Source: a virus (Duplodnaviria; Caudoviricetes). From it: DNA of 30,209 bases. Location of the stretch: the IMG/VR virus record IMGVR_UViG_3300008255_000351, positions 1 to 30,209 of that record. One strand, 5' to 3'. The notes below the pieces were generated by a model that did not search any database, was not told the DNA's origin, and worked only from the letters and a program-made list of their open reading frames with translations. The translations under genes were made by a program, and so were the position numbers. Shown here one piece after another: positions 1,084 through 29,802 of the stretch. Every line of letters starts with the position of its first letter. The first letter of the stretch is position 1.

Positions 1084-1514
1084 GACGCCACCGCCAGTTT
1101 GACGGCCCACATGCCGGGAACAGCAGCAGACGGGAGGGTGACGGGGATGGGGCGCTCGCCCTTGACGTGGTAGGCAGCGTTGCCTCGCCCGTCCATGGCG
1201 ATGAACCGATCGGGTCGATCTGGGTCGAAGGTTCCCATCTGCACGATCGGCAGCACCATGCGGGGGACAACCGAGACACGGAGTTCGTGCCCGCCTCGAA
1301 AGTCAGGAGCCGTGACCGTGAACGTGTGTCGGCCCGTACCGTCACAGTCGGGGCAAACGATGTCGTAGTCGTCGTGGTCGCATCGACCCGAGCCGCCGCA
1401 GTGATCGCACGGGCGGTCAGCCAGCGACCAGGGGTCGTTCTCCACTGCAACGGATCGGAACACGACCCACGCTGTGCCGTCACCGTTGAAGTGGATGCGG
1501 TCGGCGGAGATCAC
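1080..1514 (-). CDS. hypothetical protein with DnaJ-type CxxCxGxG zinc-finger repeats
   Basis: CDHCGGSG and CPDCDGTG; GTG1514 overlaps the recombinase stop. Confidence 0.65.
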   Translation of the reverse strand: MISADRIHFNGDGTAWVVFRSVAVENDPWSLADRPCDHCGGSGRCDHDDYDIVCPDCDGTGRHTFTVTAPDFRGGHELRVSVVPRMVLPIVQMGTFDPDRPDRFIAMDGRGNAAYHVKGERPIPVTLPSAAVPGMWAVKLAVAS

Positions 1515-2407
1515 AGCCCCAGCTCCAGGCCTTCGGTCACCTCGACAGTCCGGCGAGGGTTCTTGTCCAGGTACCGAGACGTCGTACCGACGTCGTTGTG
1601 GCGCATCGCCCGTTGGATGTCCGTCACCGGCACACCGGTCTCCTCCAGAATCCCAGCGAACGTGCGGCGCAGGTCGTGCGGGTCGAGCTTCCACCCGGCC
1701 CGCTGACCGGCCGCCTTCACGGCGTACAGGACCCCGTGGTACTGGAGGGGCTTGTCCCACTGGGCGACCCGGACCCGCTTCCCACGGATCGTGCACGAAC
1801 GCATCGTCGGCAGGACCGCGGTCGCGCCGAACGGGCGCTTCTTGTGCCAGGCCGCCAGAGCCTCGCGCAGCTCGCGAGGCACACCGATCGTGGCGGGCTT
1901 GTTGCCCTTGCCGATCAGGGTGAGCCGGGACCAGTCGGCCGAGAAGTCCTTCCAGCGCAGGCCACAGATCTCTTCGGCCCGGAGCCCGCACAGGGTCCCG
2001 AGCAGCAGGATCAGCCGGTCACGTTCCCCGGCGTCGTCGGTCGGCATCACCAGGATCAGGTCACGCAGTTCCTGCTTCGAGAGCCAGGTGTGGGTCCTCA
2101 CGGACCCACGGCCCGGGATGACCGAGTAGGTGAGGGCGGCCGACGGGTCGGTCTCGATCCAGCCCCGGTACACGCACCAGCCGAAGAAGCTGTGGGCGTG
2201 AGCCCGGCGCTTCTTCACCGTGGACGGGGCCGGGTTATTCGACAGGCACCAGTCGGTGAGGACCTTCTGGTCGATCTCGTCGAGCATGACGGCGCCCGAG
2301 TACTTCTGCAGGGTGTTCATCACCTTGCGGAACGAGGTCACCGAGGACGGGGTGCGGAGCCGTCCGGCCTCCTCGACGTAGGCGTTGATCGCTTCGTAGA
2401 ACCTCAT
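1511..2407 (-). CDS. int: tyrosine recombinase/integrase (Xer-sized, 298 aa)
   Basis: Catalytic set GLRAEE (R), GKGNK (K), HDLRR (HxxR), MRH (H), TTSRY (Y); N-terminal core-binding domain (APSTVKKRRAHAHSFFGW). Confidence 0.95.
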   Translation of the reverse strand: MRFYEAINAYVEEAGRLRTPSSVTSFRKVMNTLQKYSGAVMLDEIDQKVLTDWCLSNNPAPSTVKKRRAHAHSFFGWCVYRGWIETDPSAALTYSVIPGRGSVRTHTWLSKQELRDLILVMPTDDAGERDRLILLLGTLCGLRAEEICGLRWKDFSADWSRLTLIGKGNKPATIGVPRELREALAAWHKKRPFGATAVLPTMRSCTIRGKRVRVAQWDKPLQYHGVLYAVKAAGQRAGWKLDPHDLRRTFAGILEETGVPVTDIQRAMRHNDVGTTSRYLDKNPRRTVEVTEGLELGL

Positions 2408-2637: not shown

Positions 2638-2666
2638 GGTGGGTTCCTCTCGTTCCATGACCAGAA

Positions 2667-8794: not shown

Positions 8795-8818
8795 ATATTA
8801 CCACACCAGTCCCGGACT
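8795..8818 (-). promoter_or_regulatory. operator plus extended -10 promoter
   Basis: Minus strand AGTCCGGGACTGG-TGTGG-TAATAT. Confidence 0.8.
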
Positions 8819-12698: not shown

Positions 12699-12752
12699 GG
12701 GCGTGGTGCCCTCCTTGGGCTGTGAGAGGATCCAGGAAGGATCCAGGACTGG

Positions 12753-13930: not shown

Positions 13931-13968
13931 TGCTGTCTGTCCTCTCTGTCATTCCAGCAACTGATCAC

Positions 13969-14213: not shown

Positions 14214-14242
14214 TTGACGCCTCCTTGACAGTCCGGTACTGT
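14214..14242 (+). promoter_or_regulatory. sigma-A-type promoter overlapped by an operator; leaderless mRNA of the HTH regulator
   Basis: TTGACG-N17-TACTGT-N6-ATG14249; operator variant ACAGTCCGGTACTGT at 14228-14242. Confidence 0.75.
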
Positions 14243-14248
14243 TCAGGT

Positions 14249-14572
14249 ATGGCACGACGACCCTCCATTACCCAGGACCGCCTGGACCGACTCCGGGAGG
14301 ACTACGAGGCGTGGAACCCGTACGACCCGGACGGCCCGACCGCGAACGAGATCGCGGCCCGTCACGGCGTGTCGAAGAACACGATGTACACCTGGCGGTC
14401 CCGAGGCTGGCGCCTCGACGGGCACGACGGTGAGGGCCAGCAGGGCTGGAAGGGCCGCGCGGGACAAGCGTCACACGACGATGTGTCCGAAGTCATTTCG
14501 TACCTGACCGACGAACTCGTAAAGTCTCGTATCCGGGTTGCCGAACTAGAGAGGGAGCTTCGAGGGGAGTAG
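14249..14572 (+). CDS. HTH transcriptional regulator (candidate repressor) with a C-terminal coiled coil
   Basis: TANEIAARHGVSKNTMYTWRSRG HTH; ELVKSRIRVAELERELR. Confidence 0.8.
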   Translation: MARRPSITQDRLDRLREDYEAWNPYDPDGPTANEIAARHGVSKNTMYTWRSRGWRLDGHDGEGQQGWKGRAGQASHDDVSEVISYLTDELVKSRIRVAELERELRGE

Positions 14573-15300: not shown

Positions 15301-15521
15301 GACAGCACCCCCACGGGCGCGTGCTTCGAGCAGAACGCCTCCCCCGTGAACTCGCCCATGAAGACCCGGACGGTCGCGGGGGTGTCGTCGCACCACGGGC
15401 TGCAGCAGACGAAGTCGCGAGCCTCATTGCCGTTCGGTGTGGTTGGGAACCACTCCCGCTCGATGCCGTGCAGCTCGTCGGTCTCGTCACGACGAACGTC
15501 GTCGTCTGTGTCGAATGACAT
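15297..15521 (-). CDS. early-array hypothetical protein (Cys/His motif)
   Basis: GAGAGGAG SD; CCSPWC...FCSKH. Confidence 0.7.
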   Translation of the reverse strand: MSFDTDDDVRRDETDELHGIEREWFPTTPNGNEARDFVCCSPWCDDTPATVRVFMGEFTGEAFCSKHAPVGVLS

Positions 15522-15527
15522 TCTTGT

Positions 15528-15595
15528 ACTCCTCTCGGTTCAGCCCGGCGGTGTTGCCGGGCAGTGGGCCCCGAGCCCGTGAGGGCCCGAGGTCC
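15528..15595 (-). repeat. structured leader, copy A
   Basis: ggacctcgggcc-ctcacg-ggctcggggccc ACT gcccggc-aacacc-gccgggc tgaac CGAGAGGAGT. Confidence 0.85.
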
Positions 15596-15598
15596 CGG

Positions 15599-15877
15599 TC
15601 ATGACGTGGCGAGCGCGTCCTTGGCGAGCGCCTTGATCGCATCGAGCGGCCCACCGAGGTGGGACTCCTGCGTCCCTCCCCGGGACTCGTACTCGGACGC
15701 CGAGATGAGGGCGATCAGGTACTCGACCTCTTCGGAGTAGCCGTCCTCGGCAAGGACCCGCTTGTCCTCGTCGTAGATCTCGTCGTACATGGCGACGATG
15801 ATCGGGTCGACCTTCAGCGCCTCGGTGTAGGCGTCGCACTGCTCGGTCGTGTACTGGGGGATGTCGGCAATGGTCAT
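15599..15877 (-). CDS. early-array protein, paralog of 17044-17301
   Basis: MTIADIP...DPII...YESRGGTQESHLGGPLDAIKALAK. Confidence 0.75.
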   Translation of the reverse strand: MTIADIPQYTTEQCDAYTEALKVDPIIVAMYDEIYDEDKRVLAEDGYSEEVEYLIALISASEYESRGGTQESHLGGPLDAIKALAKDALATS

Positions 15878-15884
15878 GGTTGGT

Positions 15885-15955
15885 TCCTCTCTGTGAGACC
15901 TGGCGCTGTTGCCAGGAGTGGACTGGTCACACGTTAGCATGACCAGTCCGGGACT
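15885..15955 (-). repeat. structured leader, copy B, with an embedded operator and extended -10 promoter
   Basis: ggactggtcatg-ctaacg-tgtgaccagtcc ACT cctggc-aacagc-gccagg...GAGAGGA; contains AGTCCCGGACTGG and TGcTAACGT. Confidence 0.85.
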
Positions 15956-16254
15956 CAGTCGAGCACGCCGATGGCGACGAGGTTGAGGCGCTCGCGCTCG
16001 TCGAGGTCGCGCTCGTCGAAGTTGCCCAGGCCGTGGGCTTCGAGCGCCTCCCTGAGGCCTTGCCAGAGGGCGGACGTGGACAGGTTCCGGAGGTGGATCT
16101 TCTGCTCGTGATCGAGCCGGGTGTCCAGAAGCTGGTCGAGGTGACTGTGGCCGATACTCCCGGCGATCACCAGGACCGCCAGGGCCTCCTCGGGCGCCAG
16201 TTCGATCGTGATCGACTGGAGCACCGGCTTGGTGCTGTTGGCTGTGATGTTCAT
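15955..16254 (-). CDS. early-array hypothetical protein
   Basis: GAGAGGAG SD; MNITANSTKPVLQSITIEL... Confidence 0.75.
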   Translation of the reverse strand: MNITANSTKPVLQSITIELAPEEALAVLVIAGSIGHSHLDQLLDTRLDHEQKIHLRNLSTSALWQGLREALEAHGLGNFDERDLDERERLNLVAIGVLD

Positions 16255-16259
16255 TCTGT

Positions 16260-16327
16260 TCTCCTCTCAGGTGACCGGCGCGGTGTTGTGCCGGAGTGGG
16301 CGCCGAGCCCGTGAGGGCTCGACGTCC
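16260..16327 (-). repeat. structured leader, copy C
   Basis: ggacgtcgagcc-ctcacg-ggctcggcgccc ACT ccggc-acaacaccgc-gccgg tcacct GAGAGGAG. Confidence 0.85.
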
Positions 16328-16333
16328 TGGGTG

Positions 16334-16627
16334 CTACCACCAGGCGGGGAAGTGCCTGGGGTTGCCGTTGCGTTTGAACGCAACGAACAGTGGGCGGATC
16401 CGGTAGCGGCCGTTGCGGGGCTTGTCGTACACCTTCGCTCGGCGGGTCACGGTGAACGTGAAGCCCGGGATGTACGAGACCCACGCCCTGGTTCGCCACC
16501 AGGGGTCGTGAATCGAGTGGCCGTGCCAGGGCCAGTCGTAGGCCCGGTACCCGGCGCCCCGCTTGAACGGAACGAACCGGAACTGCCATCCAGGCCCGTG
16601 GGGGTTGCGATCCAATTTGATCTGCAC
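16334..16627 (-). CDS. early-array basic, aromatic-rich protein
   Basis: ACGAGAGGAG SD, GTG start. Confidence 0.7.
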   Translation of the reverse strand: MQIKLDRNPHGPGWQFRFVPFKRGAGYRAYDWPWHGHSIHDPWWRTRAWVSYIPGFTFTVTRRAKVYDKPRNGRYRIRPLFVAFKRNGNPRHFPAWW

Positions 16628-16633
16628 TCTTGA

Positions 16634-16698
16634 TCTCCTCTCGTTGACCAGGCGGTAGTGCCTGGAGTGGACGCCGGACCCTCTCAGGTCCGGCGCCC
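16634..16698 (-). repeat. structured leader, copy D
   Basis: gggcgccggacc-tgagag-ggtccggcgtcc ACT ccaggc-actacc-gcctgg tca ACGAGAGGAG. Confidence 0.85.
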
Positions 16699-16766
16699 GG
16701 GTACTTGGGGGCTCTCCCCGTCAGCCGAGGAGAAGTAGGCGCCAGGGCCGAGCCCCCGATGCAGAA

Positions 16767-16970
16767 TCAGGCAGGCACGACCGTGATGCTCATGTCCACG
16801 GCATCCCCGTGCGGATCGATGACGTCCTCGGCGACCTTCAGGGCGCCTTCCAGGGTCACGAACCCCTGAACGGCATCGTCCAGGTAGAACGTCGGAAGGT
16901 CATGCCAGATGGCGTCCTCGGGGTAGCCCTGCATGCGCGCTACGCGCGCGCTGACAGCCCATAAGCTCAT
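16767..16970 (-). CDS. early-array hypothetical protein
   Basis: ACGAGAGGAG SD; MSLWAVSARV... Confidence 0.7.
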   Translation of the reverse strand: MSLWAVSARVARMQGYPEDAIWHDLPTFYLDDAVQGFVTLEGALKVAEDVIDPHGDAVDMSITVVPA

Positions 16971-16975
16971 TGTGA

Positions 16976-17039
16976 TCTCCTCTCGTGGTTGCAGCGGTGT
17001 TGCTGCAGTGGACCCGGTATCCCTTCGGATACCAGGCCC
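16976..17039 (-). repeat. structured leader, copy E
   Basis: gggcctggtatc-cgaagg-gataccgggtcc ACT gcagc-aacacc-gctgc aacc ACGAGAGGAG. Confidence 0.85.
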
Positions 17040-17043
17040 GGGG

Positions 17044-17301
17044 TCACGCGCTCTTTGCGAGCGCCTCCAGGGCCTCCAGGGGCCCGCCGATGTGGGTCGG
17101 GACCGTGCCGCCGCGACGGTTGTACTCGCGCAGGGCTGCGGTCATGAACCCGTATCGGTCCTCCAGTGTCCCGTCCGCCAGCTGGACCTGAATGGCCGCT
17201 GGCAGCTCCAGGAACAGGTCCTGGATGACTGGGTCGGCCTGTAGCAGCTTGCGGGTCTCCCCGTACTGCTCGGACTCGATGACGCCGATGTGGTTGCTCA
17301 T
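17044..17301 (-). CDS. early-array protein, paralog of 15599-15877
   Basis: MSNHIG...DPVI...YNRRGGTVPTHIGGPLEALEALAK. Confidence 0.75.
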   Translation of the reverse strand: MSNHIGVIESEQYGETRKLLQADPVIQDLFLELPAAIQVQLADGTLEDRYGFMTAALREYNRRGGTVPTHIGGPLEALEALAKSA

Positions 17302-17306
17302 GGTGT

Positions 17307-17372
17307 TCTCCTCTCGTGAACCGCACCGGGATGGTGCGGAGTGGACCCTCCCCGTGCGACCGGGAAGGATCC
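17307..17372 (-). repeat. structured leader, copy F
   Basis: ggatccttcccg-gtcgca-cggggagggtcc ACT ccgcacc-atccc-ggtgcgg ttc ACGAGAGGAG. Confidence 0.85.
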
Positions 17373-17379
17373 TGGGCTC

Positions 17380-17961
17380 TCACAGGCCCCAAGCGTCGAG
17401 CAGGGCTCGACCCACAGGGCCAGGGGTACGGACCACCTGACGGTCCGGGTACTTGCCCGCCACATGGGCTGCGGCGAGCTGGTAGACGGACTCGCAGAAC
17501 AGTGCGTCCCGGACCGCCTGGGAACCGATCCCGGCGGCCTGGGCCCTGAACAGCTCGACCTCGTCGTCAGCCGTGAAGCTGAGCCCGTGGTCGATGTGTG
17601 CCGTGTCGTGCCAGACCCTGAACCGCAGGTTGTCGTCCCGGCTGAACACCGGGTGGTCGTGCCACAGGTCAGAGACCTGCAGCTTCAGCGGGGTGACGAT
17701 CGACTCGTCGTAGGCCGTGACCATGGCCTCGAAGTCGACGTACGGCGTGTCGTCCTCGACCGCCTCCCAGACCGATGCACGGCCCAGGCACCAGACGAGG
17801 GTGACCCCGTCCTCGGTGATCGTCCTGGTGCGTTCTCCGACGTAGTCGGCGAGCGCCTCGGCGTTGGTCACCGACTCGATCCCCAGGTAGCCGTCCGCAG
17901 CCCCTCGCAGGGCCTTGTTGTACTCGGCGGCCAGGGCCTGCCATGTCGCGTTGCTGAGCAT
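17380..17961 (-). CDS. early-array protein with a putative metal-binding motif NxxFRxWHDxxH...E
   Basis: HPVFSRDDNLRFRVWHDTAHIDHGLSFTADDE. Confidence 0.75.
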   Translation of the reverse strand: MLSNATWQALAAEYNKALRGAADGYLGIESVTNAEALADYVGERTRTITEDGVTLVWCLGRASVWEAVEDDTPYVDFEAMVTAYDESIVTPLKLQVSDLWHDHPVFSRDDNLRFRVWHDTAHIDHGLSFTADDEVELFRAQAAGIGSQAVRDALFCESVYQLAAAHVAGKYPDRQVVRTPGPVGRALLDAWGL

Positions 17962-17967
17962 GATGTT

Positions 17968-18034
17968 TCTCCTCTCGTGGTAGCTGGCAGGGTTGCCAGC
18001 GGTGGGCGCCGAGCCCGTGAAGGGCTCGACGTCC
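17968..18034 (-). repeat. structured leader, copy G (7-nt loop, ACC linker)
   Basis: ggacgtcgagcc-cttcacg-ggctcggcgccc ACC gctggc-aaccct-gccagc tacc ACGAGAGGAG. Confidence 0.85.
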
Positions 18035-18042
18035 TGGGGTGT

Positions 18043-18318
18043 TCACCAGCCGTCGGCTTCCTCGATCCAGGGACCGAGGTGGTGGGCGTCAGCGATCGCC
18101 CAGGCCGGTGCGAACGCCGAGCCCCGGTAGGCCACCGAGGTGGGTAGCTCGATCGATCGATCGGGCTCGTCCTCGGCGTAGGCATCGATCGCAGCGATGC
18201 ACACCGGGACCATCGACGCCGGGACCGGCGGGTAGTGGTTGTGCTGGAGGTGCCACCGGATGGCGGTCTCCAGGTCCACGCCGGACTCGGCGATCTCTTG
18301 AGCGTGTAGTGCTCCCAT
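18043..18318 (-). CDS. early-array phage hypothetical protein (HLxxNHYPPVP...HHL)
   Basis: ACGAGAGGAG SD; WHLQHNHYPPVPASMVPVCIAAIDA...AHHL. Confidence 0.75.
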   Translation of the reverse strand: MGALHAQEIAESGVDLETAIRWHLQHNHYPPVPASMVPVCIAAIDAYAEDEPDRSIELPTSVAYRGSAFAPAWAIADAHHLGPWIEEADGW

Positions 18319-18325
18319 GATGGGT

Positions 18326-18390
18326 TCTCCTCTCGTGAAGCCAGCGGTAGTGCTGGCAGTGGACCGGCGAGCGGTGAAGCTCGCAGGCCC
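18326..18390 (-). repeat. structured leader, copy H
   Basis: gggcctgcgagc-ttcacc-gctcgccggtcc ACT gccagc-actacc-gctggc ttc ACGAGAGGAG. Confidence 0.85.
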
Positions 18391-18393
18391 TGG

Positions 18394-18666
18394 TCAGACC
18401 TTGCGGACCTTCCGGGCGACGACCTCGCAGCGGGACTGCGTGGCGCCAGCCACCCGGAAGAACCGGGTCGAGACCTTGCCCTCGACCCGCACTGACCGAC
18501 CGGCCTCGACCTTGAAGGTCGGGTGGTACCAGGCCACGGGGACCGTGTCCTGGGTTCCCTCGGGTGAGGTCGTGGTGACGTGGAACGTGGTCCACGGCTC
18601 GCCGCTCGGGCTCTCACGCCGTACGGCGTCGGCCACGACGAACCCCTCGATCCTGACGGTGTTCAT
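18394..18666 (-). CDS. ssb: short OB-fold SSB/PriB-like protein lacking the acidic tail
   Basis: MNTVRIEGFV...RESPSGEPWTTFHV...DTVPVAW...GRSVRVEGKVSTR...CEVVARKV. Confidence 0.75.
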   Translation of the reverse strand: MNTVRIEGFVVADAVRRESPSGEPWTTFHVTTTSPEGTQDTVPVAWYHPTFKVEAGRSVRVEGKVSTRFFRVAGATQSRCEVVARKVRKV

Positions 18667-18670
18667 GATG

Positions 18671-18735
18671 TCTCCTCTCGTTGGGCTCGCAGGGTTGCGA
18701 GCGGTGGGCCCGGAGCCCGTCAGGGCTCCAGGTCC
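18671..18735 (-). repeat. structured leader, copy I (ACC linker)
   Basis: ggacctggagcc-ctgacg-ggctccgggccc ACC gctcgc-aaccct-gcgagc cca ACGAGAGGAG. Confidence 0.85.
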
Positions 18736-18951
18736 TCAGTTCTCCATGACGACCGCCGAGTGCCGGTAGCCACCCAGGCGGGAGCCGCAGCCCTCGCACG
18801 GTGACCACGAGAACTCGCAGTCGTCGCCCGAGTCACTGCAGGTCACCGCCACGTAGCCCTCCACGAGCCCCAAGGGCTCGCAGTCGGTCTCGTCGGCCAG
18901 CTCCCCGTTGGCGGCGAGCATGGCGCAGTCGGTGCAGATCAGGATCTCCAC
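18736..18951 (-). CDS. early-array Cys-rich acidic protein
   Basis: GTG after ACGAGAGGAG; ICTDC...FSWSPCEGCGSRLGGYRH. Confidence 0.7.
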   Translation of the reverse strand: MEILICTDCAMLAANGELADETDCEPLGLVEGYVAVTCSDSGDDCEFSWSPCEGCGSRLGGYRHSAVVMEN

Positions 18952-18956
18952 TGTGT

Positions 18957-19021
18957 TCTCCTCTCGTGATGCCGGGCGGGGTGCCCGGAGTGCCAGCAGC
19001 ACCGGCGAAGGTGCTGCGGGC
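18957..19021 (-). repeat. structured leader, copy J
   Basis: gcccgcagcacc-ttcgcc-ggtgctgctggc ACT ccgggc-acccc-gcccgg catc ACGAGAGGAG. Confidence 0.85.
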
Positions 19022-19024
19022 GGG

Positions 19025-19195
19025 TCAGACGTAGTGCTCGGGCCAGTTCTCACGCCGGTACTCGGCGAGCGACTGGCCGTCGTCCGGGGTGGCCTCCCAG
19101 TCGAGCTTCGTGCACTCCCGGCACGGGCAGTACCACAGGGGCACCTCGGGCTGACCGTTCGAGCCGCTGTTGGCGATGCAGGCGATGACGTCCAT
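19025..19195 (-). CDS. early-array small Cys protein (56 aa; not in the ORF track)
   Basis: MDVIACIANSGSNGQPEVPLWYCPCRECTKLDWEATPDDGQSLAEYRRENWPEHYV* after ACGAGAGGAG. Confidence 0.7.
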   Translation of the reverse strand: MDVIACIANSGSNGQPEVPLWYCPCRECTKLDWEATPDDGQSLAEYRRENWPEHYV

Positions 19196-19200
19196 GGTGT

Positions 19201-19267
19201 TCTCCTCTCGTTGGGCTGCAGCTCGTGCTGCAGCAGTACCCGGCCCAGGTTCGATCCTGGGCTGGGT
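19201..19267 (-). repeat. structured leader, copy K
   Basis: acccagcccagg-atcgaa-cctgggccgggt ACT gctgcagc-acga-gctgcagc cca ACGAGAGGAG. Confidence 0.85.
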
Positions 19268-19273
19268 GGGGCG

Positions 19274-19546
19274 TCACCGGGTCGCCCTGTGCGCCTCCAG
19301 GGCGCCGTAGGCCTCGACCAGAGCCGAGATCAGGTCCGGGATGGCCTCCCGGTGCACGCTGATCCGGAGCTTCGACACGGTGTCGTCGATGGTCTCCGAT
19401 GCCGTGAGGTCAGCGAAGGCCACGCCGTCGGTCTCGACGGTGAAGCCCCAGCCCTCGCCCACGCCCATCGTGGCGGCCGAGTCGAACCGTCCGGTCCGGG
19501 CCACGCACGCCGGGACCGGCTGACGGGTGATGGTTGCAGTGCTCAT
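19274..19546 (-). CDS. first early-array protein, hypothetical
   Basis: AGAGGAG SD; MSTATITRQPVPAC... Confidence 0.7.
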   Translation of the reverse strand: MSTATITRQPVPACVARTGRFDSAATMGVGEGWGFTVETDGVAFADLTASETIDDTVSKLRISVHREAIPDLISALVEAYGALEAHRATR

Positions 19547-19550
19547 GATG

Positions 19551-19618
19551 TCTCCTCTGTTCGAGCAGCGCCACCGTGGCGCTGCAGTCGACCAGCAGCC
19601 CGTGAAGGCCACCGGTCG
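19551..19618 (-). repeat. structured leader, copy L
   Basis: cgaccggtggcc-ttcacg-ggctgctggtcg ACT gcagcgcc-acggt-ggcgctgc tcgaac AGAGGAG. Confidence 0.85.
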
Positions 19619-19619
19619 G

Positions 19620-19835
19620 TGAGAAGAGAGGAAGCCCCTCCAGCGTGGCTGGTTCGTCCGGGGCCCGATCGGTGCCAGCTCGGCGGCACCACGAGGGGCC
19701 GTGCTCTGCTGGTCCTGCCCACCAGGGCCGTCCCCCACGGGTGGGGCGCTGGTGGCGGTCGAGCGGCTCTTGAGCCCGGGCGCTGTCCCCGGGTGGGCTC
19801 TGGCCTCGGTGTCCTCGCTGGGTCGATCGGCCTGA
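19620..19835 (-). ncRNA. candidate structured 5' leader RNA of the early transcript
   Basis: No credible ORF; long-range pairing GGCCGAUCG/CGAUCGGGCC encloses several GC hairpins. Confidence 0.4.
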
Positions 19836-19839
19836 CACC

Positions 19840-19869
19840 AGTAGAAGCAGACCAGTCCTGGACTGTCAA
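19840..19869 (-). promoter_or_regulatory. probable early promoter with a perfect operator in the spacer
   Basis: TTGACA (19869-19864) overlapping the palindrome CAGTCCAGGACTG (19853-19865); -10 is non-consensus (TTCTAC/TCTACT). Confidence 0.65.
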
Positions 19870-22752: not shown

Positions 22753-22985
22753 AGCGCACGTTCGACAGCTGGGAAGAGGCCGACCAGTCCCGCGAGAACC
22801 CCGACGCCGAGATGGTGTGCGGGGTCCGCATGGAGGACGAGACCGCCCGGTACTTCGTGGTGCCGCGGGAGACCTCGGACGACGAGATCGCCGAGATGGC
22901 GTTCGAGATCCGCAACGGTCGTCCCGTGTCGAACTACGAGCGCACGATCCGTGACCTGGCCGAGCGCCGCCTGGTGGACGCCTGA
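22749..22985 (+). CDS. hypothetical protein between terminase and portal
   Basis: GTGA and TGATG coupling. Confidence 0.7.
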   Translation: MKRTFDSWEEADQSRENPDAEMVCGVRMEDETARYFVVPRETSDDEIAEMAFEIRNGRPVSNYERTIRDLAERRLVDA

Positions 22986-24811
22986 TGGAGTACACGCCGA
23001 TCAACATCGACAACGTGCCGTCCATGCTGACGGCGTACACGGAGCGCTGGCGCGAGCGCGACGAGCGCATGGACATCATCGACGCGGCCGTGAAGGGTGA
23101 GTTCGGCCTGACCGACGAGTTCGGTGACTCGGTCGACAACAAGTCCCCGAACATGGTGCAGGTCGCCCTGGAGGACACCGCCGAGGCCGCCTCGATCGTG
23201 CCGTCGGTGCGCGTCACGCCCTCGCGCCAGTCGCTGAAGGACAAGGCCGCGGCGATGGAGCGCATGGGGTCCGCGTACCTCGACTTCTCGCAGATCGAGC
23301 TGCTCACGATCCGCTCGCTGATGGACCTGTGCGCCTACGGCCAGCTCTCGTGGGTGGTCGAGCTGGACGACGAGTCCGGCTCGCCGGTCATCAAGTGGCG
23401 CAACCCGCGGTTCTGCTACCAGGAGGCCGGGTGGCACACCATGGACTCCACCCGCAAGGCCCTGTTCGTGCGTCAGCTCTACGTGTCGCAGCTCCCGCTG
23501 GAGTGGCAGGTGAAGATCTACACCCACGTCGACAAGGACTTCCCGTCCCAGACGCCGGAATGGTGGGAGGACCAGGAGATCACGATCGTCGAGATCTTCA
23601 CCGAGAAGGAGATCGTGACGGCCGCGGTCTACCAGTCGACCTCGCGCACCGTCCCGTCCGCGTCGCGCCGCTCGTACATCCCGATCGAACTGGACCGCCG
23701 ACAGACCGCCGGTGGGATCTGCCCGGTGATCGTCGCCGAGCGCATCTCGCTCGACGGCCAGCCGCGCGGCCAGTTCGACCAGATCGTCCGGGTCATGGAA
23801 GGCCACATCCGGCTCCTGTCGACCCTCATGGACTACGCCGACCAGGCGGTCTACTCGGACGTCTGGGTGAAGGACCTGATCGGCACGATGCCGGTCGGTG
23901 GTGGCTCGTACATCCAGCTCGGCCCGCAGGGCGCCATCGGTCGTGTGCAGCCCGCGGTCTCGTCGCTGCAGGTGTTCGAAGAGCTGGACCGCCTCATGGA
24001 GGGCATGCACCTCGGTGGCCGCTGGCCGAAGGTCCGCCCGGGCGAGGTGTCGCAGTCGATCGCGTCCGCCAAGTTCATCGAGGCCTCGGCCGGGATGATG
24101 AACACGACCATCCGGACGCTGCACTTCATCATGAAGCGCGCGATCGAGCAGGCCCTCCGGGTGTGCTTCGTGGTCGACAAGGCGCAGGGCGCCGACCGCG
24201 CCGTGTCGGGGATCCTCCGCAACCAGCAGTTCATGATCGATCGCGACCGCGACGACATCGACCTGGAGGCCCGCGTGCGGGCCGAGTACGGCATGGGGCT
24301 CGGCCGTGAACCGGCCCAGGCGATGGTGCTCGGCATCCAGGCCCAGCAGGCCGGGCTCGTCTCGACCGAGTACGTGCAGGAGAATTTCGAGGGCATCCAG
24401 GACGTCGAGCTGGAGCGCCGCCGGATCGACGTGCAGGGCATGCGGGACATGGCGCTAGCGCGCCTCATGCAGGGCATGGAGACCGGCGAGGTCCCGATCT
24501 CGGCCCTCACGAAGATCGCGAAGGCCCGCATGAACGGCGACGACCTGTTCGACCTGTTCGACGAGTACATCGTGAAGCCGCAGGAGGAGATGCAGGACCA
24601 GCAGCTCACGAGCGGCATCGATGGTAGTGCCATGATGCCCGGCGCGGCGCCCGCCGGAATGCTTGGGGTGGCCCCGCCACCGGCCCCGCCCGCCGAGGAG
24701 CTACTCGGGGGCGGGCCGGGAGGCCCGCCGGAGTCGATCAGTAGGACTTCGGTCCCGATGGGTCAGGGCTCGTTCGCTGGCGTCCAGTCCCAGATGGGCG
24801 GTCCTGCCTAG
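22985..24811 (+). CDS. portal protein
   Basis: 608 aa directly after terL; helical character; GQPRGQFDQ segment; Pro/Gly-rich C-terminal tail. Confidence 0.8.
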   Translation: MEYTPINIDNVPSMLTAYTERWRERDERMDIIDAAVKGEFGLTDEFGDSVDNKSPNMVQVALEDTAEAASIVPSVRVTPSRQSLKDKAAAMERMGSAYLDFSQIELLTIRSLMDLCAYGQLSWVVELDDESGSPVIKWRNPRFCYQEAGWHTMDSTRKALFVRQLYVSQLPLEWQVKIYTHVDKDFPSQTPEWWEDQEITIVEIFTEKEIVTAAVYQSTSRTVPSASRRSYIPIELDRRQTAGGICPVIVAERISLDGQPRGQFDQIVRVMEGHIRLLSTLMDYADQAVYSDVWVKDLIGTMPVGGGSYIQLGPQGAIGRVQPAVSSLQVFEELDRLMEGMHLGGRWPKVRPGEVSQSIASAKFIEASAGMMNTTIRTLHFIMKRAIEQALRVCFVVDKAQGADRAVSGILRNQQFMIDRDRDDIDLEARVRAEYGMGLGREPAQAMVLGIQAQQAGLVSTEYVQENFEGIQDVELERRRIDVQGMRDMALARLMQGMETGEVPISALTKIAKARMNGDDLFDLFDEYIVKPQEEMQDQQLTSGIDGSAMMPGAAPAGMLGVAPPPAPPAEELLGGGPGGPPESISRTSVPMGQGSFAGVQSQMGGPA

Positions 24812-24833
24812 TCCGGGACTGGTGTGGTACACT
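24810..24833 (+). promoter_or_regulatory. operator plus extended -10 promoter of the sRNA/tRNA cluster
   Basis: AGTCCGGGACTGG-TGTGG-TACACT. Confidence 0.8.
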
Positions 24834-24838
24834 GGTCT

Positions 24839-24945
24839 TCGTCGGAACTCCTCTCGTCCGACGAGACGTCAACCCCCCGCCCGTGGATCCCGACCCACCG
24901 CCTTCTTGCTGGCGGTCAGTAGGACGGCACGGGCGGGGGGTGTGA
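24839..24945 (+). ncRNA. candidate trans-acting antisense sRNA with an anti-RBS loop
   Basis: Stem TCGTCGGA/TCCGACGA with loop ACTCCTCTCG; second domain closed by CCCCCCGCCCGT/ACGGGCGGGGGG with inner ACCGCC/GGCGGT. Confidence 0.6.
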
Positions 24946-24952
24946 TGAACGG

Positions 24953-25028
24953 AGCGGTGTGGGGGAGTTTGGTCGTCCCCGGCGGGTTCATACCCCGCAG
25001 ATCGCAGGTTCGAATCCTGCCACCGCCA
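24953..25028 (+). tRNA. tRNA-Met (CAT), initiator-like
   Basis: Acceptor aGCGGTG/CACCGCc with a 1:72 mismatch; D stem GGGG/CCCC; anticodon stem GCGGG-TT CAT AC-CCCGC; T arm GCAGG-TTCGAAT-CCTGC; no encoded CCA. Confidence 0.9.
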
Positions 25029-25031
25029 CGG

Positions 25032-25098
25032 AAGGCCGTAGCTCAATGGCAGAGCGCCCGACGGGGAGATGCGGGTTCGAGTCCCGCCGACCTACCCA
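25032..25098 (+). ncRNA. tRNA-like RNA with a truncated anticodon arm (or tRNA pseudogene)
   Basis: TA-GCTC-AATGGCA-GAGC D arm; GCGGG-TTCGAGT-CCCGC T arm; NCCA at the expected register; anticodon arm only CCC-GACG-GGG. Confidence 0.7.
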
Positions 25099-25117
25099 TC
25101 TTGCGGGGGTGTAACCG

Positions 25118-25528
25118 ATGGAACCAGGACAGCCCGACGTGGTGAACCAGCTGCCCGCGACAGGGAACCCGATGGAGCCCCAGTCCGGGACCTACGGTCG
25201 TGTCGCCGACACCGATCGTCTCAAGCAGCAGCTCGATCTCCCCGGCGCCGGTCCTGGCGGTGCGGCCGTAAAGCCGACACCCCCGCCTCCCGGCATGCCG
25301 CAGGGCACCCAGATCACGCCACCCCCGGGTGGCGTGCCGGACGTCCTGATGAAGCCCACCTCCCGGCCGGACGTTCCGGCCTCGACCCCGTTGCAGGGGA
25401 CCGAGCCCCCGCCGTCGCAGACCGTCCAGAACCACATCGCTGCCCTGGAGGCGCTGCTGAACTCGCCCACGACCTCGCAGACCACGAAGCGTTGGGCTGA
25501 GACGGTCCTGGAGCGGTACCGCTCGTGA
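25118..25528 (+). CDS. Pro-rich hypothetical protein (possibly virion-associated)
   Basis: GGGGGTG SD; GTGA coupling to the next gene. Confidence 0.7.
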   Translation: MEPGQPDVVNQLPATGNPMEPQSGTYGRVADTDRLKQQLDLPGAGPGGAAVKPTPPPPGMPQGTQITPPPGGVPDVLMKPTSRPDVPASTPLQGTEPPPSQTVQNHIAALEALLNSPTTSQTTKRWAETVLERYRS

Positions 25529-28500
25529 CTGACTTCCTCGACTCGGCGTTCGAGGCGGTCGGCCGGGCGGCGAAGCCGCTCGCCCCGGCCATCGACTTCC
25601 TCGCCCCGACCAGTACCGGCCAGGGCGGCCAGGAGCTGTCGATCGGGAACCTGATCAACTCGGTCGGCCGCGGCATCCAGAATACGGTCGACGAGGGTCT
25701 CGTCGGGCTCGGGGCGGCCGCGTACAACGCGGCCACGATGCGCGGCATGTCGGCCCGCGACCGGCTCCTACTGGGCGGCATGGCGCTCGCCGGTGGGGCC
25801 ATGTCGGCCCGTGCGATCCACTCCGGGTGGAAGGCCAACCAGCCGGTCCGGATGCACGCCCGCACGATGCGCGCGCCGCTGGGCGAGGTCCCGGGCGGGT
25901 ACCCGCAGCTGACCGAAGGGCTCGGTGACCCGCACCGGTTCATCGACATCACCGCAGAGGCGCAGGACCTGGCGTTCCAGCGCCCAGGCATCAACCGCAA
26001 GCAGGCGCAGATCCTGGCGTCCGACGACGGGTTCGGTGTGGCTCGCGGGTTCGCTGCGTTCGACCCGGCCGACGAGGTGAAGCTCGCGTCCGCGGCCGGA
26101 CTGTTCGAGACCTACGCGGCCCGCGCCCCGGAGGGTGCCCGCGGCGCCCAGGTCGACTGGGCCCGGTTCTCGTACGCCATGGACACCGGCAAGGTGCGCG
26201 GTACGCCCGGCAACGCCAAGGTGAAGAAGCTCTGGAAGGCGGTGACCGAGACCCCTGAGGACGTCACCATGGAGCAGGCCGAGGAGCTGTTCGGCTACAT
26301 CCAGATGATCGGTGACCGCACCGACGGCATCACCGCGGACGACCTCTCGATCGGGCTCGCTGGCCGGGTCGAGCACATCGACTTCGTCGATGACGACGTC
26401 CGGTTCTTCGTGTCGCACCCGGTCGGGTGGAACGACGGCCAGTCGGTCGACCCGTACATCCGCGCGAAGCGCCTCCAGCAGCTCAACATCCGCCAGCTCG
26501 CTGACCGCGGCCACCGGATGATCCGGCAGCTGTTCGACATCGGCGACCAGCAGTACAAGCTCTTCCAGGAGACCGGCCAGACGGACCTGCCGAAGGGCAT
26601 GCACCTCGGTCGGGACTGGTACCCGGTCGCGCTCGACGACACGAAGAAGGCGTTCGGTGTCGACGACGGCGACGGACTGAACCGTGCGGTCGCGGCGGTC
26701 TCGTTCCTCTCGGAGGCCGAGGACTGGTCGACGAACGTGTACAAGGCGCGCCGGATCCTCGATCTGGCGGGCGACGTGTCGGACGAGGACTTCCAGGCCT
26801 GGCTGCGCGACGGCGTCACGCCGGACGCCTACGACTCGAAGGTCGCTCGGCACAAGTACACGGGCAAGCTCGCAAAGGAGCACAACCGCCGGTTCCATGA
26901 GATCTGGGACACCGTCAAGAACGGGCCTCCGGGGGAGCGCGGCTTCAAGGTCGACGAGAGGACCATGAAGAAGGTCCTTCGGCTCTACGGGGGCGTGGAG
27001 CCCGTCGATGACGTGTTCCGCTCGACGAAGGCCCGCAAGCAGAAGAACTTCTACCTGAACATCCGGTACCCGGACGGCGAGTGGCCCGTCACGATCGACC
27101 GGCACGCCTACGACGCGTTCTACGGCATGGACGCCGGGATCCAGGACCGTCCGATCGACTCAGCGATCGGCGACGGGGACCAGGCGTACGACGTGATCGC
27201 CGACACGTACCGGGCGGTCGCTCGTGAGCTGGCCGAGGAGTCCGGCGAGCAGGTCCTCCCGCACCAGGTGCAGGCCGTGGTGTGGGAGGTCTGGCGCATC
27301 CTGAAGGGCACGCAGGGCCGGGACGGCTGGGGCGCACGCTTGAACGGCGCGAGCACGCCCACCCCGTTCATGATGACGCTCCCGGACGAGGTCTCGAACC
27401 CCGTGTTCGACGCGCTCATGGGCAAGTCCGGCCTCACCGGTGCGCTCGGCCAGGACCTGTCGGGCCCGGTGCCGGTGACGCTCCTCGAAGCGTCCGACGT
27501 GAAGGGCCTGTCCGCGGTCTCGGTCGGCGACGACTACGTCGTGCTCGCCGACATGGACGACAAGGTCGCTGCCTCGGTCCGCACGAAGACCCCGGGCGTG
27601 ATCGGCACCGACCGCATCGCGCGCTGGGTCGACTCTGAGCCCCTCAAGGTGAGGTCGCTGGACGAGTTCGTCGCGACCGCCACCGAGGACGTCCACTGGA
27701 TGGAGACCACGCTCGCGTCGGACCACGTCGGTGGCGTGCACCCGGCGCTCCGGCCGGAGGACACGATCGTCGCGTACCTCGACGAGGGCGCCAAGGTGAA
27801 GACCCCTACTGGTGTCAAGGCCCGTCGCGCTGGCCGCGCCGCGGTCGACACGCAGGACCTGTCGTACGAGCGCCTCGGACCGGACGACATCGACCCGAAG
27901 AAGTGGCGGGGGAACGACTCGCCGCTCAACACGCACGCCTGGGCGGCGGTCTCGGCCGAGCTGACGCCCGAGCAGGTGAGCGCGTTCGGCGTACAGGGCC
28001 ACGACAACGTGGCCGCCACGAACCAGCTCCGCGCCGAGCTGCAGCGGCGGGGCTACAAGCCGATCGATCAGGAGGGGTTCTACGGGTCTGAGACCCCGGA
28101 GGTCTCGTTCCTGGTGTTCGGGATCTCGCCGCGCGAGGCGCGCGAGATCGGTGAGATGTTCCACCAGGACTCGGTGATCACGAACGACGGGTTCCTGTAC
28201 AACCGGAACGCCACGAACGACCCGGCCGACCTCGGCCGCCGTCGGGCCGCCCAGGGTCTGGAGCTGGATCCGCCGCAGGACCCGAGCCTCCCGCCCACGG
28301 AGTACTTCCGGTCGGAGCTGGTGATCGGCGGCAGGCGCCTGAAGTGGCGTCAGGACCTCGACTGGGACAACACCGAGGACGTCGCTGACGAGCTGATCGA
28401 TCAGCGCAAGACCTTGAACCGCGAGCGCGTCGAGATCGCGATCCCGCCCGGCCGGGACATCCACGAGCTGGTGTCCGACCTCGAAGGGCGCGGGTTCCGT

Positions 28501-29802
28501 GACGTCTCGGTCTACACGAACCGAGACCAGGTACCCGGGTTCGACCGGGCATACGAACGAGTCGTGACCGACGGGGCGGCCGTCACCGTCATCCGCACCG
28601 CTGATGGTGCGATCTCGGACCCTCACGGCTCGCACGTCTTTGTCCGGTCGAACTCTGGCCTCCCGAAGCGGGCGAAGAAGCCGCCCGCACCGGGCTGGCA
28701 GGACACCGGCGAAGGCGTGGCGATCGCGGGGAACACCCTCCTGGTCGACGGCCGGTTCCCGAGCGGCAACGTCGAGTTCACGGGCCCGTTCCAGGCGAAG
28801 CTGAACGGCCAGTCCCCGATCGCGTGGGGCTACGTGGACAACACCTTGACCCCGATCTTCGACGAGCTGGAGCTGAACTCCGGCCGGTTCCAGGCCACGA
28901 TCAGGGGCGACAAGATCACCCCGGCCGACGAGATGGACGTCACGGGCGCGATCCGCGCGCACCAGGCGCTCCGCGACGCCGGGTACCCGCAGGCGGTGCT
29001 CTCGAACGACAAGGGCAACGTCAAGAAGATGAAGCTCCAGACCTCGGAGGGGACGTTCTCGTTCGGCGAGGAGAAGGCCACGACAGCGTCCTCGGAGGTC
29101 GTCACGACCCGCAACGGCCTGGCCGCGGTGCAGTGGCACAACGACCGCAAGGTCCCCCGGTTCGAGCGCCAGTACGGCATGTCGCTCGACATCGGCTGGC
29201 GCGCCGGTCGCGCGAACCACGCGCTCGACGGTGCCATGGTCGAGCAGCTGGAGCAGGGGACGGGGCTCGTGTTCAACGAGCACGAGGCCGTGATCCACCG
29301 GGCGCGTCTGGTCGGCATCACCACCGAGAACGTCAACAAGAAGGACCCGGCGTACGCGTACTTCCCGTTCGCTCCGGACCAGCGGATCGTCCTTACCCGC
29401 GAGTTCTGGGAGGACCAGGCCCGGTTCGAGCGCCAGCTCGCCGAGGACCGCCAGACCGGGTGGATGACGCCTCGCGTCGAGCCCACGGCCCGCAGCATCA
29501 TCGTGCACGAGCTGGGCCACGTCATGCACCTGTCGGCCCGCATGGGCGAGGGTATGGTCATCAACTCGCCCATGGAGCGCGAGATCTTCAAGCTCGTGGG
29601 TGGGGCTCGCCAGCTCAATAAGGTCGCCGGGCGTGAGATCTCGACGACCGCCGGTACGGAGATCTCCGAGTTGATCGCCGAGTCCGTGACCGAGGTCCTG
29701 CTCTCGGACCGCCCCTCCAAGCTCGCCAGGGACGTGTATGCTGTCCTCACTGACCACCTGGGCGAGTACATGAAGCACCACAACATGAGGCCCACAGCAT
29801 GA
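25525..29802 (+). CDS. large multidomain protein (1425 aa), probably virion-internal, with a C-terminal zincin metallopeptidase
   Basis: WY...LS....W..N...KNFY.NI...VTIDRHA...Y...A...QVQAVVW domain; SAE...NQLRAEL..RGY...EGFYG..E.SFLV...FHQDSVI domain (DUF3293-like); VHELGHVMH...SELIAES. Confidence 0.75.
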   Translation: MTDFLDSAFEAVGRAAKPLAPAIDFLAPTSTGQGGQELSIGNLINSVGRGIQNTVDEGLVGLGAAAYNAATMRGMSARDRLLLGGMALAGGAMSARAIHSGWKANQPVRMHARTMRAPLGEVPGGYPQLTEGLGDPHRFIDITAEAQDLAFQRPGINRKQAQILASDDGFGVARGFAAFDPADEVKLASAAGLFETYAARAPEGARGAQVDWARFSYAMDTGKVRGTPGNAKVKKLWKAVTETPEDVTMEQAEELFGYIQMIGDRTDGITADDLSIGLAGRVEHIDFVDDDVRFFVSHPVGWNDGQSVDPYIRAKRLQQLNIRQLADRGHRMIRQLFDIGDQQYKLFQETGQTDLPKGMHLGRDWYPVALDDTKKAFGVDDGDGLNRAVAAVSFLSEAEDWSTNVYKARRILDLAGDVSDEDFQAWLRDGVTPDAYDSKVARHKYTGKLAKEHNRRFHEIWDTVKNGPPGERGFKVDERTMKKVLRLYGGVEPVDDVFRSTKARKQKNFYLNIRYPDGEWPVTIDRHAYDAFYGMDAGIQDRPIDSAIGDGDQAYDVIADTYRAVARELAEESGEQVLPHQVQAVVWEVWRILKGTQGRDGWGARLNGASTPTPFMMTLPDEVSNPVFDALMGKSGLTGALGQDLSGPVPVTLLEASDVKGLSAVSVGDDYVVLADMDDKVAASVRTKTPGVIGTDRIARWVDSEPLKVRSLDEFVATATEDVHWMETTLASDHVGGVHPALRPEDTIVAYLDEGAKVKTPTGVKARRAGRAAVDTQDLSYERLGPDDIDPKKWRGNDSPLNTHAWAAVSAELTPEQVSAFGVQGHDNVAATNQLRAELQRRGYKPIDQEGFYGSETPEVSFLVFGISPREAREIGEMFHQDSVITNDGFLYNRNATNDPADLGRRRAAQGLELDPPQDPSLPPTEYFRSELVIGGRRLKWRQDLDWDNTEDVADELIDQRKTLNRERVEIAIPPGRDIHELVSDLEGRGFRDVSVYTNRDQVPGFDRAYERVVTDGAAVTVIRTADGAISDPHGSHVFVRSNSGLPKRAKKPPAPGWQDTGEGVAIAGNTLLVDGRFPSGNVEFTGPFQAKLNGQSPIAWGYVDNTLTPIFDELELNSGRFQATIRGDKITPADEMDVTGAIRAHQALRDAGYPQAVLSNDKGNVKKMKLQTSEGTFSFGEEKATTASSEVVTTRNGLAAVQWHNDRKVPRFERQYGMSLDIGWRAGRANHALDGAMVEQLEQGTGLVFNEHEAVIHRARLVGITTENVNKKDPAYAYFPFAPDQRIVLTREFWEDQARFERQLAEDRQTGWMTPRVEPTARSIIVHELGHVMHLSARMGEGMVINSPMEREIFKLVGGARQLNKVAGREISTTAGTEISELIAESVTEVLLSDRPSKLARDVYAVLTDHLGEYMKHHNMRPTA

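Follow-up and report, generated by a model that had tools for sequence, protein, structure and literature searches.

A temperate phage, known from a 30.2-kb partial record (30,209 nucleotides, all of which were analysed and which we call the window), has a hairpin directly after its portal gene whose loop is complementary to the ribosome binding site (RBS) repeated in front of its small early genes. The loop is on the opposite strand from these genes, and the corresponding segments in related phages change together with the RBS of each lineage. Exposure of the loop, and a pairing with the RBS that is stronger than that of the 16S rRNA tail, are predicted. We consider it probable that the hairpin belongs to a trans-acting antisense RNA, one RNA for many targets, that damps early translation during lytic growth, and the support for the antisense reading is comparative.

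The window encodes a terminase, a portal protein that is a distant relative of Streptomyces phage portals, a tyrosine integrase and a replication operon, and it has an array of small genes on the minus strand at about 14.9-19.6 kb. Four of the five terminase matches in genomes are in Acidimicrobiia assemblies, and that class is therefore taken as the likely host. A gene for a 1425-aa protein with DUF7178 and DUF3293 matches (25525-29802) directly follows the head genes.

The post-portal cassette and its predicted targets

The cassette and the regulatory features discussed with it are the following.

1511..2407, minus: tyrosine integrase, which points to a temperate lifestyle
14249..14572, plus: HTH protein of 107 aa, apparently leaderless, a candidate repressor
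19854..19869, minus: early array promoter, TTGACA overlapping the palindrome AGTCCnGGACT
22985..24811, plus: portal protein, with the hairpin-tRNA cassette inserted directly 3' of it
24810..24833, plus: predicted promoter, consisting of the palindrome AGTCCGGGACT, 7 nt and TACACT, with no -35
24839..24864, plus: anti-RBS hairpin, with the loop ACUCCUCUCG at 24847-24856
24867..24947, plus: second long GC stem of the candidate sRNA, from folding, which alone does not fix its strand
24953..25029, plus: tRNA-Met(CAU), initiator-like (1:72 mismatch, three G-C anticodon-stem pairs)
25032..25095, plus: tRNA-like RNA with a truncated anticodon arm

The sequence-only reading had described the hairpin behind a promoter motif, followed by a GC stem and the tRNA-Met, and all of these elements are where it placed them. 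The hairpin reads TCGTCGGA-[ACTCCTCTCG]-TCCGACGA, and its predicted stem has 6 bp if the RNA starts at 24841 and is longer in a read-through RNA. The region 24835-24952 folds at -69.7 kcal/mol (z -5.55), and none of 200 shuffled sequences was as stable. The loop core is predicted to be 0.93-1.0 unpaired in four of the five transcript forms that were folded, and to be sequestered in the longest unprocessed form (24841-25100). The second stem matched no Rfam family, and no convincing homologue of it was found in 3.0 Mb of retrieved loci.

The same reading had called the sRNA separately promoted. A palindrome followed by a TAnnnT motif is indeed present upstream, whereas a generic sigma-70 scan recognised no promoter at the cassette, and so we infer the promoter at 24810-24833 from its motifs. 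It overlaps the portal stop codon and has a predicted start site at 24840-24841. The palindrome AGTCCnGGACT has nine matches in the window with at most one mismatch, against 1.7 expected, and TAnnnT follows at identical spacing after three of the five exact copies, at 8818 (minus), 13992 (minus) and 24810; the copy at 19864 overlaps TTGACA. Thus, the promoter at 24810 shares an operator-like palindrome with the early and replication promoters. A near-copy (14230-14240) covers the -10 of the HTH gene itself, which is divergent from the replication operon, and the simplest reading of the HTH protein is a putative CI-like repressor.

In locus L008 the corresponding slot behind the portal gene holds a similar promoter, and a leaderless ATG is found 6 nt downstream of the -10. 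This would suggest that the slot is an insertion site and that the RNA of the window starts near 24841. The slot takes variable insertions (window 24811-25117, L008:14735-15040 and L064:13929-14700).

We take the tRNA-Met to be initiator-like from its 1:72 mismatch and its three G-C anticodon-stem pairs. Such a tRNA with the anticodon loop UUCAUAC is present in the window and at L011:3212-3284, and a pattern built on it matches about 130 viral stretches. Among 119 loci anchored on this unusual tRNA, of which 80 were covered with full flanks, three had a repeated RBS motif and none had an upstream match of at least 8 nt. Short RNAs that resemble a tRNA or a mini-tmRNA but have neither a normal anticodon arm nor a coding part occur at 25032-25095 of the window, at L001:3389-3469 and at L020:3702-3782.

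The predicted targets, all on the minus strand, are as follows.

2645..2653: 9-nt match to the RBS of a 75-aa ORF that lies upstream of the integrase, a predicted target
13940..13946: weak 7-nt match to the RBS of the first gene in the exonuclease/helicase operon
15528..15537: 10-nt match to array copy A (CGAGAGGAGU), predicted to be a strong target
15885..15891: weak 7-nt match to array copy B
16261..16268: 8-nt match to array copy C, predicted to be a moderate target
16635..19211: exact tag ACGAGAGGAG at eight array RBSs, which are the predicted main targets
19552..19558: weak 7-nt match to copy L, the first RBS of the array

The sequence CTCCTCTCGT occurs nine times on the plus strand of the window and is absent from the minus strand. 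Eight of the copies are the complements of array RBSs (at 16635, 16977, 17308, 17969, 18327, 18672, 18958 and 19202), in agreement with the perfect complementarity to copies D-K that had been claimed, and the ninth, the sole exact copy away from a gene start, is the hairpin loop. The loop is 5.6 kb from the array, on the opposite strand and in another transcription unit, and therefore it could act only in trans. The bare 10-mer match is by itself weak evidence: of 400 Markov simulations, 47 (0.12) contained it somewhere beyond the array, and for this reason the weight rests on the place of the loop and on the relatives. Among the 472 strong loops of the window, this loop is the best match (p about 0.01 against shuffled motifs).

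The partial matches that had been listed (10 nt in copy A and 7-9 nt in copies B, C and L, at 2645-2653 and at about 13940) all check out. The number of genes that would be silenced, which had been put at about a dozen, comes down to about 10-11 strong predicted targets, the 7-nt matches being weak. The best nine of 202 SD-like (Shine-Dalgarno-like) starts are all array RBSs, and the tenth lies inside the 1425-aa gene. Net binding, including opening costs, is predicted to be -13.4 to -15.1 kcal/mol for the nine leaders, -12.7 for the integrase-operon leader, -11.2 for copy C and -5 to -7 kcal/mol for the 7-nt sites. Loop pairing at the eight exact sites is predicted at -18.5 to -21.3, compared with -13 for the 16S tail.

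Because the five genomes with related prophages yielded no 16S end, the 16S tails were taken from members of the likely host class; of the 81 genomes compared, 48 have CCTCCTTT and none has CCTCCTCT. Compared as a possible mimic of the host anti-SD, the loop is not identical to the 16S tail of this class, which is itself an inferred host. The late head genes mostly use a GGGGGUG-type site, other than the array tag. In the phage family, GAGGAG is found in none of 66 terminase leaders, compared with 30 of 66 for GGGG, and in two of 69 portal leaders.

Each exact-tag RBS sits behind a two-hairpin leader unit. Twelve such leaders are present at 15500-19640 (minus). In each, a short CCACU-like linker joins a long hairpin to a second one, which is followed by the RBS, and the leaders are possibly nuclease processing units.

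Loops and tags in related phages

If the loop acts on the tag, the two might be expected to covary in related phages, a check that the sequence-only reading had proposed. They do: the anti-RBS segments of the relatives match the tag of their own lineage, be it GAGAGGAG, CACAAGGAG, GAGGAGGAAC, GAGGAGAG or AAGGAGCCAUC. The clearest case is L011, the one relative in which a stand-alone cassette was found. Its layout (a -10, a long hairpin with the loop UUUCUCCUCUCGCUC, then tRNA-Met) is homologous to the cassette of the window; the stem end and tRNA align at 72.6% over 95 nt (E 3e-6), and the homology includes the 3' end of the second stem and its junction with the tRNA. The L011 stem differs from that of the window, its loop carries CUCCUCUCG, and four G-U pairs favour the anti-RBS strand; the two array RBSs that are visible read CGAGAGGAG.

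Most of the other relatives with a loop carry it in the terminator at the end of the array. G001 has the same tag as the window and two anti-tag hairpins after the exonuclease, G010 (tag AAGGAGCCAUC) has an 11-nt mirror within a hairpin, and marine relatives with the tag ACGAGGAGGAAC have terminator loops with GUUCCUCCUC. L057 (tag GAGGAGAG) has CUCUCCUC at the place of the array-end terminator. In G003 and L001 the tag is CCCACAAGG(G)AG, and CUCCUUGUGGG is present upstream of tRNA or tRNA-like genes, although folding does not place these copies cleanly in a loop; a terminator loop is present in G003 as well. The relatives with matching segments (G001, G003, L001, G010, L057 and the marine clade) are on several branches of a terminase tree, which is a quick tree. 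Of 13 homologous hairpins, 11 have G-U pairs that favour the anti-RBS strand, and it is on this strand that U-tracts come next.

The window segment pairs with its own tag set at -19.6, compared with -8.5 to -13.2 for the other tag types, a comparison that is descriptive since the segments were chosen by their match to the own tag; a permutation value of 1/5040 was set aside for the same reason. The L057 loop pairs less well with its own tag than with that of the window, and the L069 loop lacks specificity. In G013 an anti-tag copy is buried in a stem and is ambiguous. Three relatives that are 94-100% complete (G006, G007 and G008) have arrays and no matching loop, and the closest relatives by terminase have no cassette after the portal. 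Exact and near-exact hairpin scans of viral contigs returned only the record of L011 and one unrelated contig, which looks like a chance match.

A structure-first test found own-tag matches of at least 8 nt in 12 of 61 array-end hairpins and in one of 1246 hairpins elsewhere, with 12 of 23 records that have an array-end zone being positive, where the zone was defined after inspecting earlier data. In loci fetched after the zone had been defined, the counts were 8 of 199 versus 0 of 527 hairpins, and eight of the nine loci with the motif were positive. This second test used 22 of 32 loci (six already analysed or near-identical and four with little upstream sequence were left out), and 13 of the 22 were without an array motif. 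Because nearly all positives are related marine-type phages (11 of 12 in the first test and eight of eight in the new loci), there are perhaps five independent events. In a loose genome-wide test the excess was approximately twofold (21 loop hits versus 10.3 and 16 of 33 genomes versus 8.2), and only nine of 34 records reached p<=0.05. Apart from those for the loci fetched later, the counts leave out G002 and G014, whose top motif did not mark an RBS array, the redundant L021, L126, L130 and L170, and records without a motif of at least four copies; L011 was added by hand from two leaders.

The array-end zone of the window itself has no anti-tag loop, and this is consistent with the anti-tag role having moved to a free-standing gene in this phage. 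Short anti-SD runs are present on the minus strand at 19620-19650, upstream of the first array gene, and at 12725-12745, just after the exonuclease; they are possibly remnants, and relatives carry anti-tag copies in these places.

The leaders of the relatives display several kinds of RNA elements. By pattern matching, 21 of 34 related loci have a first array leader that fits a type III hammerhead, with stem III formed between an anti-tag strand and the first RBS, although Rfam scored none of these leaders. Examples, all on the minus strand, are L020:8820-8900, L172:8810-8890 and L177:9060-9170, and there are others. Such a first leader is a candidate for a cleavage-gated SD site, in which the released 5' piece would itself be anti-tag, and the anti-tag strand of stem III is a possible origin of the loop. 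These leaders also bear on the ACGAG prefix, whose conservation had been tentatively put down to pairing with the sRNA; this is possible, but the GAAAC/stem-III strand of the hammerhead-like first leader could be a second source of it.

Type II hammerhead arrays (Rfam RF02276), with one hammerhead per early-gene leader, are found on the minus strand at L004:3963-6384 and L172:5712-8559 and in L043 and L057. By eye, tRNA-like T-arm/acceptor elements replace hammerheads in minus-strand leaders at L177:5700-8850 and at L011:400-470 and 1750-1820. A conserved non-coding stretch upstream of the terminase (L001:3060-3150 and L002:6220-6310) had no Rfam match at gathering score.

One can imagine from these patterns an early-gene timer made only of RNA, in which the early transcript would be cut by hammerheads, tRNA-like elements or hairpins into tagged units, all of them silenced by an anti-tag RNA. 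The anti-tag would have begun as stem III, would then have been copied into the array-end terminator and would be, in the window, a free mobile gene accompanied by an initiator tRNA; the SAS repeats described below would have the same explanation. We put this scheme forward tentatively, as an idea that may well prove wrong.

Possible role of the RNA

In the mechanism that we favor, a putative stand-alone gene would specify an RNA of about 110 nt, transcribed from about 24841 and with a 3' end presumably set by 5' processing of the tRNA-Met. The RNA would be made alongside the lytic promoters, probably under shared control, and would accumulate. Through its loop, which is predicted to be open, it would bind in trans to the tag over the SD of about ten early mRNAs, and occlusion of the SD would make the early proteins come as what is probably a timed pulse. 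Late head genes with the GGGGGUG-type site would escape, and in the relatives where the loop ends the early transcript a delay would be built in.

The sequence-only reading had left the choice between an early-to-late switch and immunity. Lytic damping is preferred here, and immunity is less likely because the promoter shares its palindrome with the early and replication promoters and because five relatives with loops (G001, G004, G005, G010 and G011) have no match to the integrase of the window, in a search with that one integrase as query. In the same search, G006 has an integrase and no loop. The early transcript of most relatives itself terminates in the loop. These observations argue against an RNA that silences the early genes of a prophage or of incoming kin with the same tag, where divergence of the tags would amount to heteroimmunity as with c4 of P1 and P7. 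Such a role has some attractions, however: the phage is temperate, the RBS of the integrase operon is a predicted target, tags differ between lineages and the sections on c4 in PMC12197685 provide a precedent. We consider it unlikely as the main function, and exclusion of same-tag kin could be a side effect of lytic damping.

Pairing might also have a positive or structural role, in which the RNA guides processing, stabilizes the cut mRNA units or aids ribosome loading together with the initiator-like tRNA that adjoins it in the window and in L011. The resemblance of the array leaders to processing units would fit this suggestion. However, the duplex covers the SD core and is predicted to be stronger than SD:16S pairing, and most relatives have no tRNA beside the loop, which makes the suggestion quite improbable.

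Two further explanations are very unlikely. CUCCU is an anti-SD, and five members of the host class each have 9-43 copies of GAGAGGAG followed by ATG; one could thus imagine a generic element directed against host mRNAs during host take-over, with the match to the array as a by-product. Yet the full tag with a start codon occurs only 1-6 times per genome in the five class genomes, compared with eight times in the 2.6-kb array, and the loops follow the tag of each phage. It could also be proposed that the minus strand is the functional one, as a decoy that shows the tag to an RNA-binding protein, or that the site acts as DNA. The two strands are equal in the folding of the hairpin, and the minus strand gives a slightly better fold of the second stem; against this, the promoter motif and the tRNAs are on the plus strand, and the G-U pairs and U-tracts mentioned above mark the anti-RBS strand. 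Least likely of all is that the match arose by chance or is a relic without function, such as a leftover hammerhead stem strand. The frequency of the bare 10-mer in the simulations and the same CUCGUC end in the hammerhead-like leaders of relatives speak for this; the position of the loop right after a promoter motif, the homologue in L011 and the enrichment in both hairpin tests speak against it.

Comparison with known systems

As far as is known, phages shut off their early genes mainly by means of proteins, such as RegB of phage T4. Among the comparable antisense RNAs are c4, which acts on one operon, and CI of phage P4. The antisense RNA that we favor would by itself control many targets through their private RBS tag and, if real, such a regulon would be a different way to time an infection. 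We found no description of a phage sRNA against a shared early RBS in the literature searched, which was mostly open-access.

The c4 RNA of P1 and P7 is the closest phage system. Where c4 is treated in PMC12197685 and PMC8201110, it acts on the ant mRNA and maintains immunity, and the likeness lies in a phage antisense RNA acting in trans, with loop-exposed seeds near the RBS of an mRNA of the phage itself and with specificity set by sequence. The loop of the window, too, is predicted to be exposed and to pair near RBSs. Unlike c4, it would have one seed for a tag common to about ten early genes, and lytic timing is the more likely role. The c4 covariance model had no match at gathering score in the window, nor at E<=5 in 24700-25200; no antirepressor (ant/icd) targets were found among the 48 ORFs scanned, and the best predicted pairing is with small genes of the array, most of them without a known function.

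RsaE and RNAIII of Staphylococcus aureus also use an accessible C-rich loop that pairs with the SD of several mRNAs, and the portions of PMC3861533 that concern them describe a block of initiation. The window has a predicted accessible pyrimidine-rich loop complementary to several SDs, with the seed CUCCUCUC rather than UCCC, and the RsaE and RNAIII family models in Rfam gave no match in the window. By the same portions of PMC3861533, RsaE and RNAIII are host-encoded and have a generic UCCC seed, in contrast to a 10-nt lineage-specific tag that covaries with phage targets. The T4 RegB endoribonuclease, which inactivates early phage mRNAs by attacking GGAG according to the part of PMC1702504 that deals with it, is a protein nuclease and thus a functional analogue only.

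The start-associated sequences (SAS) of Cluster K mycobacteriophages resemble the system of the window in another way. As described in the SAS sections of Pope et al. (2011, PMC3203893), they are a private extended RBS before non-structural genes, with one copy in the opposite orientation; their function was left open as a binding site for RNA or protein, and in those sections the reverse copy is not proposed as an antisense RNA. The tag of the window is likewise repeated in one orientation before non-structural genes and has a single antisense copy away from a gene start, where the transcript strand is the one we infer; it belongs to another phage group and differs from the 13-bp SAS consensus of Cluster K, where 17-bp inverted repeats (ESAS) are a further part of the layout. 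In mycobacteriophage Anaya, the opposite-orientation SAS (about 59870; L245:29870) lies in the intergenic gap between gp96 and gp97, after the last SAS genes, and folding places CCUCCUAUCC in a 10-nt hairpin loop.

The RNA of the window is thus a comparatively supported candidate for a multi-target phage antisense RNA. If the candidate holds, compact orthogonal tag/anti-tag pairs would become available for actinobacterial synthetic biology, and the matching layout in Anaya makes the question left open by Pope et al. in 2011 directly testable in Mycobacterium smegmatis.
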